NCBI GenBank assembly: GCA_028293285.1
Contig: JAQGPC010000268.1
Coordinates: forward strand, 4,024-68,023
Length of the DNA: 64,000 nucleotides
Source of the DNA: Pedosphaera sp.
GTDB lineage: Bacteria; Verrucomicrobiota; Verrucomicrobiia; Limisphaerales; Pedosphaeraceae
Reading direction: 5' to 3'
Shown here: one piece after another, positions 23,224-35,062 of the stretch
Layout of the letters: each line of letters starts with the position of its first letter
How positions within the stretch are numbered: the first letter of the stretch is position 1
Translations under genes and position numbers: made by a program
The notes under the pieces: generated by a model
Told to the model about the DNA's origin: nothing
The model's input: the letters and a program-made list of their open reading frames with translations, nothing else
The model's database searches: none

Positions 23224-23292
23224 GTTTTAACCATGTAGTCCAATTGTGTGATGCCTCGTAAAAGGGTCCGTCCGTTGCGGCGGGGGATCCAT

Positions 23293-23392: not shown

Positions 23393-23440
23393 AGAGTTGG
23401 GTGTTATAAATTATTTTTGAAGCGGAGTTAGAGCCTCCTA
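23393..23440 (+). repeat. REP2 extragenic repeat, partial copy 2
   Basis: '...ttatttttgaagcggagttagagcctcct' aligns with the central part of the 18724-18782 copy. Confidence 0.5.
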
Positions 23441-23443
23441 GCG

Positions 23444-23596
23444 GGCGTGTTGCCTAAATCGGGAAAGCTGTAAAAGACGGTTGCCCAGGTTGTTTTACAG
23501 TCTGGAAAGGACTAAGAATCTTGCCTGTTTAACGTGCTGCAGCCGGGGGTCTTTCCAGACTGGCTTTGCCGCGCTCCGGGATTTGGGCAACACGCC
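23444..23596. repeat. 153-bp nested palindromic element
   Basis: The outer inverted repeat is 'ggcgtgttgcctaaatc' (23444-23460) against 'gatttgggcaacacgcc' (23580-23596), with 1 mismatch. The inner perfect 12-bp inverted repeat is 'cagtctggaaag' (23498-23509) against 'ctttccagactg' (23551-23562). Confidence 0.65.
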
Positions 23597-24206: not shown

Positions 24207-24267
24207 AACTGAGCGTTGCAATTCATTTTCGAAGAGGAGTTAGAGCCTCCTTACGTCGGCTCCTACC
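24207..24267 (+). repeat. REP2 extragenic repeat, copy 3
   Basis: 'aactgagcgttgcaattcattttcgaagaggagttagagcctccttacgtcggctcctacc' lies downstream of the VOC stop and is near-identical to 18721-18782. Confidence 0.7.
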
Positions 24268-24430: not shown

Positions 24431-24536
24431 CTGTAAAGGGATCGGTCCTAAGTAATGACACAATGGCGAACCAACCGACAGGTGAACTGCACGAAGAAAG
24501 CATGAAAGTGTCAATACTAAGGACCGACCACTTTAG
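24431..24536. mobile_element. REPIN/MITE-like doublet A (~106 bp)
   Basis: The terminal inverted repeats are 'taaagggatcggtcctaagtaatgacac' and 'gtgtcaatactaaggaccgaccacttta', around a ~46-bp core. These are the same ends as those flanking the Y1 transposase at 25372-26402. Confidence 0.8.
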
Positions 24537-24571
24537 AAACAGTCCGCCACTATTTTAACAATGGAGAGCCA

Positions 24572-25312
24572 ATGAATTATTATGTTCTTAAATCTGTTCA
24601 GCCTGTCCAGCGTGAAGGCAGGGGTGCCGGTTACCCGTTTATAATTCCCGGGGCCCATTGTTCGGTGTGTGGACACACATGGGGTAGTTATGTTCCCATA
24701 CCCCAATTATGCCCCATCGAGTTTCGAACCAGACTAAAGCAGGAACGAGGTAATCCGTTGGAACTCAATGTGCATCGTGATTTGATTCTCGACATCACCA
24801 GCAGCCTGGGAATCAGCTTTGCTGAGGTTCGCCCTGGGGACTGTTTGATGCCGAGTTTATCCCCAATGCCCGTGCAAAAAGACGATTTTGTCTGGACATG
24901 GCTTCCGACAGCGATCTTTGTTTCTGACCGCGCGAAGAGGGGATTTGAGACTCAAGCGTTTCGAGGACCATCCTTTTTTAAACCATTCCATTATACTTCG
25001 GATGAGGAGCAGGCTCAGTTGGAAGCCAAGCTATGGTCAGCCCAAAATGTCGAGTCAACATCACCCTTTTGGGAGATGACTTGTCCGTATATCTTTAATT
25101 TTCCGGATTTGAAGTCAGAGCACTTTGTTTGTGGCAATTGCCGCCGAGGGGATTTGAAAGTCATTCCAACGGACTTATTGGCTTCCTTGGTGGCACAGTT
25201 TGATATAATTAGGGTTAAGGGGCTAAATGAACTTGTAGTTAGTAGCAGGGTGAAAGATTTTATTGAAAAAGAGGGTTTTACCAATGCAAGTTGTGTCAGA
25301 TCTTTTCCATAA
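24572..25312 (+). CDS. double-CXXC(G) motif protein (possible Imm11-like immunity family)
   Basis: 246-aa ORF with 'HCSVCGHTW' (C30/C33/G34) and 'FVCGNCRRG' (C187/C190). The C-terminal end 'LVVSSRVKDFIEKEGFTNASCV' resembles the double-CXXCG paralogous family (TIGR02264), from memory. Confidence 0.5.
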   Translation: MNYYVLKSVQPVQREGRGAGYPFIIPGAHCSVCGHTWGSYVPIPQLCPIEFRTRLKQERGNPLELNVHRDLILDITSSLGISFAEVRPGDCLMPSLSPMPVQKDDFVWTWLPTAIFVSDRAKRGFETQAFRGPSFFKPFHYTSDEEQAQLEAKLWSAQNVESTSPFWEMTCPYIFNFPDLKSEHFVCGNCRRGDLKVIPTDLLASLVAQFDIIRVKGLNELVVSSRVKDFIEKEGFTNASCVRSFP

Positions 25313-25371
25313 AGGAGGACATTGACCTTGCGAATTCCCATTAACAAAATGCTGTCGCACACGTACGAGGC

Positions 25372-26402
25372 AGTAAAGGGGTCGGTCCTGAGTATTGACA
25401 CATAGCGCTCTTTTTCCTAACTTCGCGCGATGCCGAGAAAGCTGCGCGTGCAATATCCGGGGGCTCTTTACCATGTCATGAACCGGGGCGACCGTCGCAA
25501 GCCTATTTTCCAGGACGACACCGACCGGCAGATCTTCATCGAAACCCTGGCGCAGGCTTGTGAAAAGACTGCCTGGCAGGTGCATGCCTATTGCCTCATG
25601 AACAATCATTTTCATTTCGTCGTCGAGACGCCGCAGGGCAACCTGGTCGCTGGCATGAAATGGCTGCTCTCCACCTACACGATGCGCTTCAACCGGCGGC
25701 ACAAGTACTTTGGCCATCTCTTCAGCGGCCGTTACAAGGCGCTGATCGTCGATGGCAGCGGGACGGGCTATCTCAAGAGTGTTTGTGATTATGTCCATCT
25801 CAATCCCGCGCGGGCCAAATTGCTCACGGAGCGGCAGAAGCTCACGGCCCATGTGTGGAGCAGCTATCCTGATTATCTGAAACCCAAAAAGAAACGGCCC
25901 GCGTGGCTGCGCACCGACCGCTTGCTGGGCGAGCATGGCATCTCGAAGGACAGCTCCGCGGGCTTGCGCGAGTTTGCGTTGCGCGTGGAGGCGCGCCGCC
26001 ACGAGGAAGGCAGCCTGGAGCAGTACAAGAAGATCCGCCGGGGCTGGTGCCTGGGTGAGCCCGGCTTCCGCAAGGAACTTCTCGAACAGATGCACGGGCA
26101 ATTGGGCGAGCACCATGACGGCCCTGAGAAGCTGGAGAGCGCCGAGGAGAAGGCTGAAGGCATCATTACGCAGGAACTCAAAAAACTGCGCTGGAAGGAG
26201 GGTGATCTTGAGCGCCGCCGCAAGGGAGACCCTCAGAAAGTGCGCATGGCCGCGCGGTTGAGAAAAGAAACGACGGTCACTCTGAAATGGATCGCACAAC
26301 GTTTGCACATGGGCGCGTGGACGCACGTGACGAACCGATTATACTGGGCCAAACGAAAGCAAAATAAATGATTTGTGTCATTACTCAGGACCGACCCCTT
26401 TG
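25372..26402 (+). mobile_element. autonomous REP/RAYT-type element (Y1 transposase flanked by inverted REP ends)
   Basis: The left end 'agtaaaggggtcggtcctgagtattgacac' (25372-25401) and right end 'gtgtcattactcaggaccgacccctttg' (26375-26402) are inverted repeats bracketing the CDS at 25430-26371. Confidence 0.8.
25430..26371 (+). CDS. IS200/IS605-like Y1 (HUH) transposase, RAYT-like, with C-terminal DnaA-type HTH
   Basis: 'YHVMNRGDRRKPIF', the HUH motif 'NHFHFVVET', the catalytic-Tyr region 'LFSGRYKALIV' and 'YVHLNPARAKL' together resemble COG1943/Y1_Tnp. The C-terminus is 'LKWIAQRLHMGAWTHVTNRLYWAKR'. Confidence 0.85.
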   Translation: MPRKLRVQYPGALYHVMNRGDRRKPIFQDDTDRQIFIETLAQACEKTAWQVHAYCLMNNHFHFVVETPQGNLVAGMKWLLSTYTMRFNRRHKYFGHLFSGRYKALIVDGSGTGYLKSVCDYVHLNPARAKLLTERQKLTAHVWSSYPDYLKPKKKRPAWLRTDRLLGEHGISKDSSAGLREFALRVEARRHEEGSLEQYKKIRRGWCLGEPGFRKELLEQMHGQLGEHHDGPEKLESAEEKAEGIITQELKKLRWKEGDLERRRKGDPQKVRMAARLRKETTVTLKWIAQRLHMGAWTHVTNRLYWAKRKQNK

Positions 26403-26452
26403 CCCCTTTAAAAGTTTTTCGTGGATGAAGCAGCTTTCACTGCGTTCACCTG

Positions 26453-27442
26453 TCACCGCGCCTGATCAGCCGGTTGGTCCGCTGCCAAGCCCGTGACTCC
26501 CGGTTCCTTGACCACCGTCCAGCGGTTGTCCGGGTTATACTCCTTTATCGCAGCGGCGGTTTTTGCCGTGCTTTCACCCAGGCTCCGTTGATAAACAATT
26601 CCGTCCTGGTTCACCATGAACGTCATGATTCCCGACTCGCCCCAGCGGACGGGATAGGCGACGAGAGCAAAGCCGCCGGTCATTTCGCCATGCGAGACGT
26701 AATTCTTTTTGCCGCCCGGTGCAGCAGGTCCCTGCCGTGTCAGAATTTTGAAATAATAACCGTGAAAGGGACGCGGACCTTCACCGCCGATCCAGTGATA
26801 TCCTTCCACAGCGGCTTCCGCCACCAGGGGCGAGAAAGGACTGGGTTCGCCGCCTGTCTCCGCCGGCCAATACAAACCATCCATCTTTCCGGGACTGCTC
26901 TTGAATTTCTGAGCGTATTTTGGCGCCTTAGTGGTGCTGGCAAACTGCTGGGCGTAGGCGCGCTGCGCTTTCACATAAGCGCGGCAAACTCCAATCGCAT
27001 AAGCTTCGTCCCGGCCGACGTGCCGGTTGATGATCTCCTCCTCACCGGCAATGGTGTCAAACATCCACGCCCCGTTGGTCTTGATCAGCGGAATCGGAAA
27101 GGGCCATGGGTCCCGGCCGATTTCCAGCGTCACCCGGTCACTCCCCTGCGACAGGACGTCACACCGCTCCGACACATCACTGGCGAAAGTTTGAAAATGC
27201 CTGTCATCCAACACCTGATCGCCGGTCAATAGATTGGTGACTTCGGGGCCGAAGATCTGGTGAACTGCCTGCCGGTCATGCGCTTTGGCCGCTTTAACCA
27301 GCGCATTTGTAGCCTCCGCCGGTGAGGTAAAGGTGCGCTGGGTTACGGCCGGCTGGTCCTGGCCCCGAACCTGCCCAAGCCACGCCAGACACATAAGCCC
27401 TAACGCCACGGCCAGTAAAAACCTAAAAATTCTCGTGTTCAT
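26453..27442 (-). CDS. DUF2950 family secreted protein
   Basis: Signal peptide, then 'TFTSPAEATNALVKAAKAHDRQAV..IFGP', 'YAQKFKSSPGKMDGLYWP' and 'GGFALVAYPVRWGESGIMTFMVNQDGIVY', all typical of DUF2950. Confidence 0.8.
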   Translation of the reverse strand: MNTRIFRFLLAVALGLMCLAWLGQVRGQDQPAVTQRTFTSPAEATNALVKAAKAHDRQAVHQIFGPEVTNLLTGDQVLDDRHFQTFASDVSERCDVLSQGSDRVTLEIGRDPWPFPIPLIKTNGAWMFDTIAGEEEIINRHVGRDEAYAIGVCRAYVKAQRAYAQQFASTTKAPKYAQKFKSSPGKMDGLYWPAETGGEPSPFSPLVAEAAVEGYHWIGGEGPRPFHGYYFKILTRQGPAAPGGKKNYVSHGEMTGGFALVAYPVRWGESGIMTFMVNQDGIVYQRSLGESTAKTAAAIKEYNPDNRWTVVKEPGVTGLAADQPADQAR

Positions 27443-27463
27443 AAGATTTCAGTGGTCTGCCCG

Positions 27464-27814
27464 TCATCTTCCATGGCCGCCGCCGCCTCCGTGACCACCG
27501 CCCCCGCCGTGGCCACCGCCTCCACCATGACCAATTCCTCCCGCTCCTCCGTGAAATCCCCCATGAAACCCGCCTACAGCACCCCGACTTGCAAACCCTC
27601 GCCGCCCAAAATCATGGTCGAACCGACCGTGATCGTGATGCCCGAATACAAAAACATCCGGTCCATAGAGACCACCGTAGTAGTTTGGGCCATAATAATC
27701 GTAATAACCAGGCCCGGCGTACCCGACATACCCCTCACTTGCGCAACCTGCCACCATCCCCAGGAGCACCAAGCCTATTCCCAGCCTCGCGGTGCACCCT
27801 GAAAGGCGTCGCAT
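27464..27814 (-). CDS. Gly/His/Tyr-rich putative lipoprotein
   Basis: The signal/lipobox 'LVLLGMVAGC' runs from the ATG at 27814. A Tyr/Gly-rich middle is followed by the tail 'GGFHGGFHGGAGGIGHGGGGGHGGGGGHGGGGGHGR'. It is co-directional with DUF2950, 21 nt upstream of it. Confidence 0.55.
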   Translation of the reverse strand: MRRLSGCTARLGIGLVLLGMVAGCASEGYVGYAGPGYYDYYGPNYYGGLYGPDVFVFGHHDHGRFDHDFGRRGFASRGAVGGFHGGFHGGAGGIGHGGGGGHGGGGGHGGGGGHGR

Positions 27815-28111
27815 AAATGAGCGTGGTCGGCCCGAAGATCGGCCGTTTCTGGCGACTCTTATATTCCGATAGGTGAACATGCGATTTGGTTCCTTCCATT
27901 CAACGCCGCTACGGGCATATTATGGGATGGCTGCTAATCTCTTGCTTCGCTGCATCCCCTACCTCCACTCCTCCTTCCGATTCCACCTTCAAACCCTTGC
28001 ACACATCCATTCCATTGGCAACCTGGGGGGATCGCCCACCCTCTCCGCAGCGGGCCACAATTTGCGACCACGTTTCGCGAAGCGAACGGCCTTGTTCGGG
28101 ACACTGATTCG

Positions 28112-28216
28112 CAAAGGGGTCGGTACTAAGTAATGACACAATGGCGAACCAACCGACAGGTAGAGAGCTGCATGAAGAAAAGCATGAAAGTGTCATTACT
28201 CAGGACCGACCTCTTA
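28112..28216. mobile_element. REPIN/MITE-like doublet C (~105 bp)
   Basis: 'caaaggggtcggtactaagtaatgacac...gtgtcattactcaggaccgacctctta'. The core 'aatggcgaaccaaccgacagg...' is as in copy A. Confidence 0.8.
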
Positions 28217-28305
28217 CAAGCTTGAACATTCAAAGGATTTGCAAGAAATTGATGAGGAGCATTATTATAAACTGTATAATCCCAAAGTTCCATCTAGCTA
28301 AATAG

Positions 28306-28782
28306 ATGAAAAATATAAAGATTTTAGACGCGTCTGATCCGGCAAGTGAGAAAGACATCGGCGTCCTCGAGACGGCTCTTGGGCGAAAAATTCCGGGCTC
28401 CCTGAGAATGTTGCTGCTCAGGAGCGATGGAGGAATTCTGGATGCCGAAAACTGTGTAACCTTCGCAAAACTTCCATCTGGTGAAGAGATGAGACTCGAA
28501 GTACAACGATTTTACAGTGTAGCAATGATCTTGGAAGCCTTGAGGGATTATGAAGGCCGGGTGCCTAGTAATCTCCTCCCAATCGCAAACAATTTATCTG
28601 GTGATCTCTTTTGTCTCAGTCTGGATGAGCGCAACCCGCGAATTTATTTTTGGGATCATGAAGACGAAGAGGAAGCTTATATCATGCTTGATAAGATTCC
28701 CGCTCCTGGACACGCAAACCTATATCCGGTGGCACCAAACTTGGAAACTTTCGTGGATACGTTGGCTCTGGATGATTCTTAG
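28306..28782 (+). CDS. SMI1/KNR4 (SUKH-1) family protein
   Basis: 158-aa ORF. 'IGVLETALGRKIPGSLRMLLLRSDGG' and 'IANNLSGDLFCLSLDERNPRIYFWDHEDE' are typical SUKH-1 immunity-type signatures. Confidence 0.8.
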   Translation: MKNIKILDASDPASEKDIGVLETALGRKIPGSLRMLLLRSDGGILDAENCVTFAKLPSGEEMRLEVQRFYSVAMILEALRDYEGRVPSNLLPIANNLSGDLFCLSLDERNPRIYFWDHEDEEEAYIMLDKIPAPGHANLYPVAPNLETFVDTLALDDS

Positions 28783-28817
28783 ATGTCTTATGCAGAAAGG
28801 ACTCCTAATCAGAGTGC

Positions 28818-28929
28818 CTGTAAAGGGGTCGGTCCTGAGTATTGACACTTTCATGCTTTTCTTCGTGCAACTCTCTACCTGTCGGTTGGTTCGCCATTGT
28901 GTCATTACTCAGGACCGACCCCTTTTACT
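28818..28929. mobile_element. REPIN/MITE-like doublet D (~112 bp, core inverted relative to A and C)
   Basis: 'ctgtaaaggggtcggtcctgagtattgacac...gtgtcattactcaggaccgaccccttttac'. The core is the reverse complement of the core in copy C. Confidence 0.8.
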
Positions 28930-28930
28930 G

Positions 28931-29410
28931 GACGCGAGCATCAAGCAATTGGAACAGGCCGTCTTGCGTGTGGCGCGGGAGTTGCCCTGCTATCCCAAAC
29001 TCAAGACCCTGCCGGGTGTGGGGATCATCCTGGGCCTGACCATCACCATGGAGATGGGAGACATCAAACGCTTTGCCGGTCCCGGCCACTTTGCCAGTTA
29101 CTGCCGCACGGTGGCCGCTCACTGCACCTCCAACGGGAAGCTCAAAGGGGAAAACAATCGCAAATGTGGCAATAAATATCTGGCCTGGGCCTTTGTGGAA
29201 GCGGCCAACTTCGCCAAGCGGTATGATGAAGCGTGCCGCAAGTGGTATGACCGCAAAGCCGCCCGGACCAGCAACGTCATCGCGACCAAAGCGCTGGCCT
29301 GCAAACTGGCCAAGGCCGCATGGTATCTGGCCGCCGAGGAAACGAACTACGACAGCAGCCGGATCTTTCCGTCCCTGGCCAGCGCCAAAACCAAACCCAT
29401 GAAAGCATAA
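28931..29410 (+). pseudogene. IS110-family transposase, 5'-truncated (C-terminal Transposase_20 part only)
   Basis: 'LKTLPGVGIILGLTITMEMGDIKRFAGPGHFASYCRTVAAHCTSNGK...NKYLAWAFVEAANFA' is the IS110 C-terminal domain. The DEDD N-terminal domain is absent, and the homology starts exactly at the end of REPIN D. Confidence 0.8.
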
Positions 29411-29569
29411 ATTTAGAAGTGCGGACATCAGCCAGAGAAAGGGGTTGGCCTTGAGCCCTCGGGACTGATTGGAGATGTCCGCGCTTCGCTGGATCAGGGC
29501 AGGAGACTCTCAGAGAGAAAGGTTTGCCGGAGATTCGACCGGACCGTGAGTCAAAAACGGGTTGGACGC

Positions 29570-29587
29570 AGAGAGAGAGAGAGAGAG
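29570..29587. repeat. (AG)9 dinucleotide microsatellite
   Basis: Direct reading: 'agagagagagagagagag'. Confidence 0.9.
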
Positions 29588-29946
29588 TCTGCGAACCATA
29601 TTATGTTAAACTGAATGAACACGGAACGGAACTGAACGTTTTCTGGACTCGCCAAAGCGAGTTGGGTGCGGTCGGCAAAGCAAAGACCAAACACGGGGAA
29701 GCTTTTGAGAGAAAAGAAAAAGACTTCCCGAAGCAGGCACTAGAACCAGATGGGTGACTGAACGGATCGCCGTGCGCGGCGAATCCGCAATCAATAGACG
29801 AAATGACGGGTTCGAATCGTGCGGGGCAGAGTGAACTCTCGGACAGTAATGAATTAACCCAGGAAATGAAACAGCCTTTGGGAACGCTAACTCTTTTGCC
29901 GGTTGACATCCGTCCTAATGGGCGACCCCTTTACAGCTTAGTCCCC

Positions 29947-30681
29947 TCACTGACTCAATCTGAAAAATTGCTGTCCGCCTGAAATGGGATTTGTGACCGT
30001 GTATTGCCCGTTGACGGTGACTGGTTTTGCAGAAACCGGAGTCCAAACGGCAGTTGATCCAAGAGTGGTGGTAGACTGCAAGACCATGTTTGGTGCATTG
30101 GTCGGCCAACTCAAAACAACAGAACTCGGTGGTGATGCGATGAGGGTTAATTTTGGCGGTAACCTCACAACTAAATTGTCCATCACGAATTCATTAGCTG
30201 CGTACTGACCGTAGCTTAGGAATTCAACGGAGTCCACGCCCAAGAAATTAAACTCAATGAATGCAGGGCCTGTGTTCTGCAATCCGTAGCTCAAGTCGTA
30301 CAATTGATTTGTCCCCGCGAATCCTCGTGCTTCAAATAATACTCCGTTTTCGAATGCCGCAGTCAGGCACGCTGAAATTAAGTCGAACTTGACCCCGCTG
30401 CTAAGCGTAGCAGGATAGCCATAACCATTAAAAACCGCGTTGGAAGAGGAGACTATCCCAGCCGTATAGCCGGGATTTTCAGCATGCGCCAAATCATAAA
30501 AATAAAAGTTTCCCCATTGCAGCCCCATGTAATTACCGGGCAGTGGATTGGTCCAATCCGGAGCAGGTAAGTCGTCGAAGCCGATCGTTATCACGCCCTG
30601 CCCGATAGCGCTTCCGCCTCCTAGCCACACGCAGGCCAAGATCAGTAAACAATTTAGAATTTGGCTGAGTGCCATTTGCAT
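29947..30681 (-). CDS. secreted hypothetical protein with C-terminal beta-sandwich-like tail
   Basis: Signal peptide 'ILNCLLILACVWLGGGSAIGQG'. The C-terminal end '...VWTPVSAKPVTVNGQYTVTNPISGGQQFFRLSQ' has the same tail type as the 22243 gene. Confidence 0.6.
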   Translation of the reverse strand: MQMALSQILNCLLILACVWLGGGSAIGQGVITIGFDDLPAPDWTNPLPGNYMGLQWGNFYFYDLAHAENPGYTAGIVSSSNAVFNGYGYPATLSSGVKFDLISACLTAAFENGVLFEARGFAGTNQLYDLSYGLQNTGPAFIEFNFLGVDSVEFLSYGQYAANEFVMDNLVVRLPPKLTLIASPPSSVVLSWPTNAPNMVLQSTTTLGSTAVWTPVSAKPVTVNGQYTVTNPISGGQQFFRLSQ

Positions 30682-30764
30682 ATAGGCAAGCAGAACTGTA
30701 AGTCCGAATCAAGTTCTCAACGAACCGGTTGAGAAAAATCGGAGAGACTTATTCACCGAAGATG

Positions 30765-31055
30765 AAAAGGCGTCGGGCTAAAGTAATAACACTTATCTGA
30801 GATCATTTTTTGGTTTTCATCGAGCCCAGTGAAGGCGGTCGTTCAAGTAGGCCCAGGTGCCCATGTGGCCTATCTTGAAAAACGCTTTAAATGCATTGGG
30901 TGTAAATGCGGCGCAGCGTCCAGCTTCACTGCGATCTCGCGAAGATCCATTGACTGAACCGGATTGAGGTCAGGAAGGGGGAACAAAGGATATAATATTT
31001 TTCCGCCAGCGTTTGAAATTTGTAATTGTGTAAATACTAGGACCGATGCCTTTAT
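30765..31055 (-). mobile_element. internally deleted REP/RAYT element (291 bp) retaining only a RAYT C-terminal relic
   Basis: The ends are 'aaaaggcgtcgggctaaagtaataacac' (30765-30792) and 'gtgtaaatactaggaccgatgcctttat' (31028-31055), which match the two REP end types. In between, the minus strand encodes 'IGHMGTWAYLNDRLHWAR*' (stop at 30817). This resembles 'RLHMGAWTHVTNRLYWAKR' of the intact transposase, with a frameshift upstream. Confidence 0.55.
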
Positions 31056-34858: not shown

Positions 34859-35062
34859 CAAGTCGAAATTATCATCCTCGGTGTCAATCTTGTAAAGGCA
34901 AACGTGAAGGTGGGGAACAAGGGAAGCAGATTGGTTGAGGCTGGGCTAGATTGTTCCCGGCAATGAATTGCCGAGCTATTTTCAGGCGCCCGCCAGGGCA
35001 AAAGACCAGAGTTCCCGCCGTTACCGGATTAGACTTAAACCATTCAGAACTGGTAATGAGTT

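Follow-up and report, generated by a model that had tools for sequence, protein, structure and literature searches.

A probable TIRtron with non-autonomous miniatures in a 64-kb window of a Pedosphaera genome

Introduction

A 64-kb stretch of DNA from Pedosphaera sp. (assembly GCA_028293285.1), hereafter the window, carries a gene for a Y1/HUH transposase enclosed by inverted copies of a 27-nt sequence, and further copies of the same sequence lie scattered among the neighbouring genes. To which class of mobile element do these ends and this enzyme belong, and have they moved the genes that lie between them? A preliminary description of the locus considered the repeats to be a single family of repetitive extragenic palindromic (REP) sequences with its REP-associated tyrosine transposase (RAYT), caught in three decay states and shuffling the intervening genes as cassettes. 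In this study, we conclude that the window very probably holds one autonomous TIRtron, three non-autonomous miniatures and one deleted relic of a related sublineage, and that the enzyme belongs to TnpA-Y1 subclass 2.1.

The TIRtron class has already been published. Di Nocera, De Gregorio and Rocco (2013; PMC3733652) reported RAYT-like genes that lie between terminal inverted repeats (TIRs) and not between REPs, and introduced the names TIRYT and TIRtron. According to these authors, the TIR repeats contain a common GGGGWSAS motif, and some of the repeat families form dimers or clusters. Later, Quentin et al. (2018; PMC6006769) assigned most TIRYTs to TnpA-Y1 subclass 2.1, which corresponds to Group 1 of Bertels and is characterized by the motifs NH[YF]H, Y[IV]HLNP and SS. 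A full-text literature search for TIRYT returned only these two papers. Hence, the present locus adds a member to a known class, together with several details at the level of the family.

Results

A search of the window with the 27-nt end pattern returned eight matches at three or fewer mismatches, against a chance expectation of 0 in 100 shuffles. The matches are arranged as four inverted pairs (24435-24534, 25375-26401, 28113-28216 and 28822-28925), and one of these pairs flanks the transposase gene (Table 1), as the preliminary description had proposed. The two repeats of this intact copy agree at 26 of 27 positions, the sole mismatch being a T versus an A at position 21. The TIRtron ends of this genome begin with AAAGGGGTCGG, and their terminus reads AAAGGGGTC.

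The 313-aa protein has the HUH/Y1 catalytic residues that were expected of it, and these residues are invariant in 45 homologues. The HUH motif is N59-H60-F61-H62, of which N59, H60 and H62 do not vary in alignments of 12 and of 45 homologues. In these alignments, invariance extends to Y121, H123, L124, N125 and P126 of the tyrosine motif Y121-V-H-L-N-P126 and to W143-S144-S145, the SS tail motif. We take Y121 as the catalytic tyrosine because the published subclass motifs place it in Y[IV]HLNP; Y102, which lies in an SGRY sequence, was considered for this role and rejected on the same grounds. The NCBIfam model of REP-associated tyrosine transposases gave 54.4 bits (cut-off 80) and the IS200 model 19 bits (cut-off 55). 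An AlphaFold model of the protein (mean predicted local distance difference test score, pLDDT, of 82) found its best fold match in the PDB in the E. coli TnpA-REP structure 4ER8 (TM 0.73 on target, root-mean-square deviation 2.6 A, 153 columns), ahead of the IS608, ISDra2 and IS200 transposases, and residues 238-312 form a confident helical bundle in this model. PDB searches by sequence, with the protein or with a profile, gave no match. Judged by the NCBIfam scores and the fold match, the transposase is nearer to RAYT than to IS200, and to this extent the original assignment to a REP/RAYT family stands.

The remaining three pairs of ends form gene-less doublets with a common 50-nt core (90-96% identity). 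Doublet 3 has the opposite orientation to doublet 2, and the two are 94% complementary over 103 nt. In the whole genome, the core was found in five doublets of 105-112 nt, three in the window and two on contig C292. The ends of the C292 doublets, like those of doublet 3, are identical or nearly identical to the ends of the intact copy, and doublets 1 and 2 carry two mismatches at each end. In single-stranded form, each doublet folds into a 27-bp stem whose one mismatch is the T/A position, with energies of -21 to -32 kcal/mol and z-scores of -6 to -10 (in the window, -21.1, -24.6 and -30.4 kcal/mol and z = -6.3, -6.9 and -9.2 for doublets 1, 2 and 3, respectively). We saw no target duplication around the doublets of this genome, and no doublets in the 40 relatives searched. 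Altogether, the best interpretation of the doublets is that they form a lineage-specific family of miniature non-autonomous elements on which the resident transposase acts.

The 291-bp copy was correctly recognized as internally deleted, since it retains both ends and a C-terminal remnant of the gene (tblastn against P0004, E = 1e-6). However, its ends are only 72% identical to the reference end, and in DNA sequence a P0004-type element (80.7% identity over 88 nt) and a relic on contig C141 resemble it more than the intact copy does. By sequence comparison, the relic is thus assigned to another sublineage than the intact copy. The window therefore does not hold one lineage in three decay states, as first proposed, although all three forms do exist.

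Table 1. Coordinates of the TIRtron-related and neighbouring features (window positions unless a contig is given)
Feature	Position	Strand	Remarks
Intact TIRtron, 1031 bp	25372..26402	+	One gene between two 27-nt inverted repeats
Left inverted repeat of intact TIRtron	25375-25401		27 nt
Right inverted repeat of intact TIRtron	26375-26401		27 nt
Open reading frame of 313-aa TIRYT transposase, intact TIRtron	25430-26371	+	Pfam Y1_Tnp, E = 1.2e-13
Putative transposase promoter	25395..25423	+	TTGACA at 25395-25400 in left repeat, 17-nt spacer, TAACTT at 25418-25423
Partial terminus repeat CCCCTTTAA	26403..26411	-	Directly beyond right end of intact copy; read from sequence
Doublet 1, gene-less miniature, older	24431..24536	-	Two ends and 50-nt core; 2 mismatches per end
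Doublet 2, miniature copy	28112..28216	-	A form at both ends
Doublet 3, young miniature copy	28818..28929	+	Both ends identical over 29 nt to those of intact copy
Internally deleted 291-bp relic of a diverged TIRtron sublineage	30765..31055	-	Both ends degenerate; 35-39 C-terminal codons kept
Terminus-like scrap GTAAAAGGGTCCGTCC	23257..23272	+	14/16 match, borderline significance
5'-truncated IS1111-type (IS110 family) element	28930..29934	+	Abuts doublet 3; Pfam Transposase_20, NCBIfam IS110
IS1111-type remnants	28930-29934; C292:31300-31490; C72:2559-2640

The family to which the transposase belongs is large in Verrucomicrobiota. The matches listed for the protein include at least 7,796 homologues, many of them on contigs of 1.0-1.4 kb, and the related loci are labelled Pedosphaera, Limisphaerales or Verrucomicrobia subdivision 3. 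Inverted ends of 17-35 nt were found at 64 of the 75 Verrucomicrobiota homologue loci with enough flank, where they delimit units of 1.01-1.06 kb. These ends are headed (A)AAGGGGTC(A/G)G, and those of most relatives carry GGGGTCAG, an exact match to GGGGWSAS. A hairpin in each single end (GTCRGT...ATTGAC) was also considered as a defining feature and rejected, as it occurs in some relatives only and is unsupported here.

Full-length copies number 4-8 or more in each of four related genomes, which also contain many fragments. In one of these genomes, eight copies are 94-99% identical, and their identity is confined to the segment TG-AAGGGG...CCCCTT-TA. The flanks of these copies are unrelated, except for those of loci L121 and L123 (genome G129, contigs C24 and C30), which have at least 250 nt of left flank in common and different right flanks. 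This pattern suggests recombination or duplication at one junction, and we therefore count the eight copies as seven independent insertions. None of these seven insertions, all from one near-identical subfamily, shows a target duplication or a flanking direct repeat. Similarly, L007 and L019, two copies in one other genome, share 94% identity along exactly 1043 nt. Given its exact boundaries, its multiple copies and the lack of duplication, the unit behaves like an insertion sequence whose target is not duplicated, which fits Y1 chemistry and not DDE chemistry.

These data also bear on the possibility that the Y1 gene is mere cargo and that the inverted ends are those of an ordinary DDE-type insertion sequence or of a family of miniature inverted-repeat transposable elements (MITEs). 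Terminal inverted repeats accompanied by miniature derivatives are indeed a hallmark of DDE elements. However, the unit has space for the Y1 gene alone, no other transposase is linked to it, and the ends accompany this gene in many species, at the 64 of 75 loci mentioned above. Together with the seven insertions devoid of target duplication, these facts make the DDE explanation extremely improbable.

The genome surveyed here, that of a soil verrucomicrobium, comprises 5.87 Mb in 314 contigs, with 52% G+C, and the window lies on contig C135. As anticipated, the ends are repeated elsewhere in the genome, including contigs C141 and C292: 17 ends were found at four or fewer mismatches, and about 22 by an nhmmer profile search. 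Only one intact transposase gene is present. The relics consist of two C-terminal pieces on C141, one N-terminal piece at the end of contig C2 and the 291-bp copy of the window.

With these counts, we could weigh the classical REP/RAYT arrangement, in which palindromic REPs or REPINs populate the whole genome and are maintained by a domesticated RAYT present as a single copy. In its favour, the enzyme is RAYT-like by hidden Markov model and by fold, inverted repeat copies flank a gene that is intact only once in this genome, and the doublets form REPIN-like hairpins. However, no hairpin forms in a single end (-2.0 and -2.1 kcal/mol, with z = +0.63 and +0.43), and 17-22 ends in 5.87 Mb is a small number, even as the lower bound that a fragmented assembly provides. 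Moreover, the NCBIfam RAYT score is under its cut-off (54.4 versus 80), relics of four further copies exist in this genome, and the relatives hold multiple near-identical copies and many fragments. The REP/REPIN label thus fails, because the single ends are unfolded, the ends number only about 22 and the gene family is multi-copy. We regard the REP/RAYT arrangement as very unlikely and retain TIRYT and TIRtron as the appropriate names for this enzyme and its unit.

The sequence of the left end offers an explanation for the difference between the two ends, which the preliminary description found to be distinguishable and consistently oriented in all copies. This holds for the intact copy, doublets 1 and 3, both C292 doublets and the 291-bp copy. 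Doublet 2, with the A form twice, is the exception. In the intact copy, the left repeat reads TTGACA where the right one reads ATGACA, and the ATG of the gene lies 6 nt after a TAACTT hexamer. Across the family, TTGAC[ACT] is present in 27 of 43 left ends and in 8 of 43 right ends, with discordant pairs at 20 to 1. The TTGACA-type box sits 29-30 nt before the ATG, the distance from GGGG to ATG is 51-53 nt in 26 loci, and a TAnnnT or CAnTCT hexamer is found at about -13 to -8. A simple promoter scan did not call the TTGACA/TAACTT site because its -10 box is weak. From this arrangement we infer a transposase promoter whose -35 box lies in the left end and whose transcript has no leader or almost none. 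In the right end, this box would have been lost; if kept, it would drive antisense transcription. In this sense, the putative promoter box in the left end would account for the T/A difference.

The ends are far from evenly distributed in the genome. Between 16 and 19 of the approximately 22 ends fall in three clusters, with eight ends (plus the relic) in the window, four within 4 kb on C141 and four or five on C292; ten ends within 6.6 kb compare with about 0.025 expected from the genome-wide density. The relative closest to the intact copy, at 84% DNA identity, also has a swarm of fragments within the 1.5 kb that precede it, and in another genome one copy is nested inside a second one, with approximately 175 nt missing at the junction. 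In relatives, an extra copy of the terminal 9-mer was found 28 nt or less outside the end at 15 of 86 ends and at none of 86 controls, and these extra copies extend over 9-22 nt. Such outside copies exist in this genome as well, on C141, on C292 and at the right end of the intact copy. Taken together, the nesting, the outside terminus copies and the clusters suggest that TIRtron elements are prone to insert at or next to termini already present, and that neighbouring DNA is often lost. A 22-nt palindromic empty target, that is, terminus joined to terminus, was also sought, and none was found in the genome.

Beyond the paired ends, three solo scraps had been proposed in the window, and they proved to be of unequal value. 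Positions 29923-29934 are an exact 12-mer of the end (chance about 0.008), but they constitute the junction of an IS1111-type element, described below. The match at 23257-23272 is borderline, and the resemblance of 34881-34899 to the end is not convincing. Of note, the scrap at 23257-23272 resembles a different end variant, GGGTCCGTCC, which makes a palindrome on contig C140. There, at approximately position 1946 of the minus strand, the two terminus-like arms of AAAGGGGTCCGTCCCGC-AT-GCGGGACGGACC form a near-perfect palindrome, a REP-like mini-doublet of this other variant. A separate repeat of about 170 nt occupies window positions 23427-23596 and has its own 17-nt inverted ends (GGCGTGTTGCCTAAATC and GATTTGGGCAACACGCC); it occurs in 13 copies of 72-88% identity in this genome and has no match in Rfam, which gave nothing above threshold across 23.2-31.2 kb. 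A second short repeat is located at 23398-23439 and 24210-24251.

The element next to doublet 3 revealed a possible second user of the TIRtron ends. Up to the 12-mer, this truncated IS1111-type element spans 28930-29922. Its transposase remnant extends to 29410 and is followed by 3' non-coding sequence; at the right junction, CTAATGGG is joined to CGACCCCTTTAC. The genome contains three such remnants (approximately 1000, 191 and 82 nt), all of them ending in CTAATGGG. This sequence is always followed by (C/T)GACCC(C/G)TT(T/C)A(C/T), after which the flanks diverge, and the same junction was found in at least 12 copies from at least eight other genomes (loci L093, L095-L101 and L129 among them). 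The constant right flank is identical to the outermost 10-12 nt of TIRtron ends. Moreover, it tracks the end variant of the host, with TTTA and CGAC here and TTCA and TGAC in the genome with eight copies. At four places (the window, C292, G009 and G129), a truncated tail lies between a complete end and a terminal piece. Two tails of about 190 nt begin at nearly the same position in different genera, and they recall the modular movement reported for ISPpu9. On the left side of intact IS1111-type copies, the flanking sequence varies and no boundary was recognized. The non-coding region has two 8-mers in common with the TIRtron end, which is weak evidence. Altogether, the junction sequences indicate that the IS1111-type element probably homes to TIRtron termini. 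To our knowledge, such homing has not been described previously. Other repeats are established targets of IS1111-group elements: IS4321 and IS5075 home to the inverted repeats of Tn21, and ISPpu9 and IS621 to REPs, by means of a seekRNA or bridge RNA (PMC11187229, PMC11208160, PMC12288879).

Have these elements moved the genes between them? The preliminary description stated that every gene between 24.4 and 31.1 kb is bracketed by elements. The bracketing is real, but one of the brackets is the IS1111-type junction. This arrangement could mean that the doublets actively assemble or shuffle cassettes, each element and its adjacent gene being moved by recombination or by transposase action. Consistent with this, each intergenic gap of the region contains an element, and doublets 2 and 3 constitute a 103-nt inverted repeat around the SMI1/KNR4 gene. 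Similar patterns exist elsewhere in the genome, as two doublets bracket a 243-aa open reading frame on C292 and four ends alternate with single genes on C141. The bracketed genes are rare, with 1-2 homologues in 5.8 billion proteins, and the SMI1 homologue of Pedosphaera parvula also has a relic upstream. However, this relic, of about 315 bp, lies 40 nt upstream of the gene, compared with 90 nt here, and the different distance indicates an independent insertion. The homologues of the other genes are found elsewhere in the absence of TIRtron ends: another genus has the DUF2950/Gly-His pair at 86% identity, and no end lies within 4.3 kb of it; the CXXC homologue has none nearby. No cassette was found to recur with the same junctions, and the comparison of individual cassettes in relatives that had been suggested found no synteny here in the 40 relatives. 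Insertion beside existing ends and the tolerance of intergenic DNA explain the clustering equally well. Cassette shuffling is therefore unsupported and, in our opinion, unlikely.

Two of these loci deserve a separate description. The DUF2950 and Gly/His-rich lipoprotein pair (window positions 26463-28022) shares 86% DNA identity with locus L086 (G005:C82), where its neighbourhood is different, and most other matches of the region to the genomes of relatives reach only 65-80%. This high identity may indicate transfer. In P. parvula Ellin514 (L105, ABOX02000024; 3641-3962 and 8100-8150), TIRtron relics and solo ends occupy intergenic gaps near the SMI1/KNR4 homologue, one of them being the deleted copy of approximately 315 bp.

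A bolder scheme would combine both kinds of insertion. TIRtron ends would act as landing pads at which new TIRtrons and doublets, as well as the seekRNA-guided IS1111-type element, insert, and recombination would then accrete or exchange accessory genes for immunity and defence. If true, the result would be an integron-like array that needs no integrase. We give this speculative scheme as low a probability as cassette shuffling.

Discussion

The reading of the locus as a TIRtron with its miniatures suggests the following mechanism. The TIRYT enzyme would move both the full unit and the doublets by cut-and-rejoin reactions of the IS200/IS605 Y1 type on single-stranded DNA, which would leave no target duplication. 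The enzyme is expected to recognize the GGGGTC-headed terminus, perhaps when both ends are paired, as a long hairpin in the doublets or as a panhandle in the full unit. New insertions would favour existing ends or end fragments, and such a preference would produce clusters in dispensable intergenic DNA, such as this immunity- and defence-rich stretch. The genes between the copies would then be bystanders.

Several observations weigh against this reading. The literature search found no biochemical study of any TIRYT. The ends of this genome read GGGGTCGG, which is 7/8 of the published GGGGWSAS motif. The C-terminal helix-turn-helix (HTH) domain expected for subclass 2.1 has no Pfam match even at E = 10. 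In addition, the 50-nt core of the doublets matches neither the interior of full elements nor any other sequence. None of the 40 relatives searched is a syntenic close relative, and thus no empty site or excision junction is available. Finally, the copy numbers given here are lower bounds, because the assembly is fragmented into 314 contigs.

As a finding on this window, a TIRtron is ordinary. Its value is in the details of the family and in a possible association with the IS1111-type element. TIRtrons are abundant, as this branch alone has thousands of homologues in Verrucomicrobiota from soil and freshwater, and the IS200/IS605 model does not accommodate a Y1 single-strand transposase that works with inverted ends. 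The locus provides a compact test set, with an intact gene, matching miniatures and a relic. It also adds testable specifics: the boundaries of the unit, the lack of target duplication, a candidate promoter box in the left end and an apparent insertion preference beside termini.

When compared with known systems, IS200/IS605 elements such as IS608 and ISDra2 resemble the unit in their HUH/Y1 chemistry and in the absence of target duplication. However, those elements have no inverted ends, and their subterminal hairpins are both read on one strand. The tyrosine motif of IS200/IS605 enzymes is Y---Q, whereas here it is YVHLNP, and the IS200 model of NCBIfam gives the present enzyme 19 bits, well below its cut-off of 55.

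REP/RAYT systems and REPINs (Nunvar 2010; Bertels and Rainey 2011) are closer, with an enzyme of the same clade and fold (4ER8), a gene flanked by inverted repeats, and doublets that make long hairpins of the REPIN type. Unlike in those systems, the ends described here are not palindromes and lack a GTAG-tagged hairpin, they number tens and not hundreds, and the gene with its ends is a multi-copy mobile unit instead of a domesticated single-copy gene.

The doublets, for their part, resemble MITEs: they are short and non-coding, have the ends of the autonomous element and occur in five copies at unrelated sites. Likewise, the IS110-family remnant has the downstream non-coding region and the subterminal inverted repeats of the repeat-homing IS1111 group, with the difference that its target here would be TIRtron termini.

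The best match is with the published TIRtrons. The Y1 gene of these elements is RAYT-like, encodes about 310 aa with the motifs NH[YF]H, Y[IV]HLNP and SS and a long C-terminal tail, and is enclosed by non-palindromic inverted GGGGWSAS ends, whose families are of moderate size and sometimes include dimers or clusters; all these traits are seen here. In comparison with the published examples, the Verrucomicrobiota branch is very large (at least 7,796 homologues among the matches listed), Pfam detects no C-terminal HTH in the enzyme, and the end of this genome is the GGGGTCGG variant. The branch also behaves like insertion sequences, with multi-copy units of exact boundaries, a putative -35 box in the left end and no target duplication.

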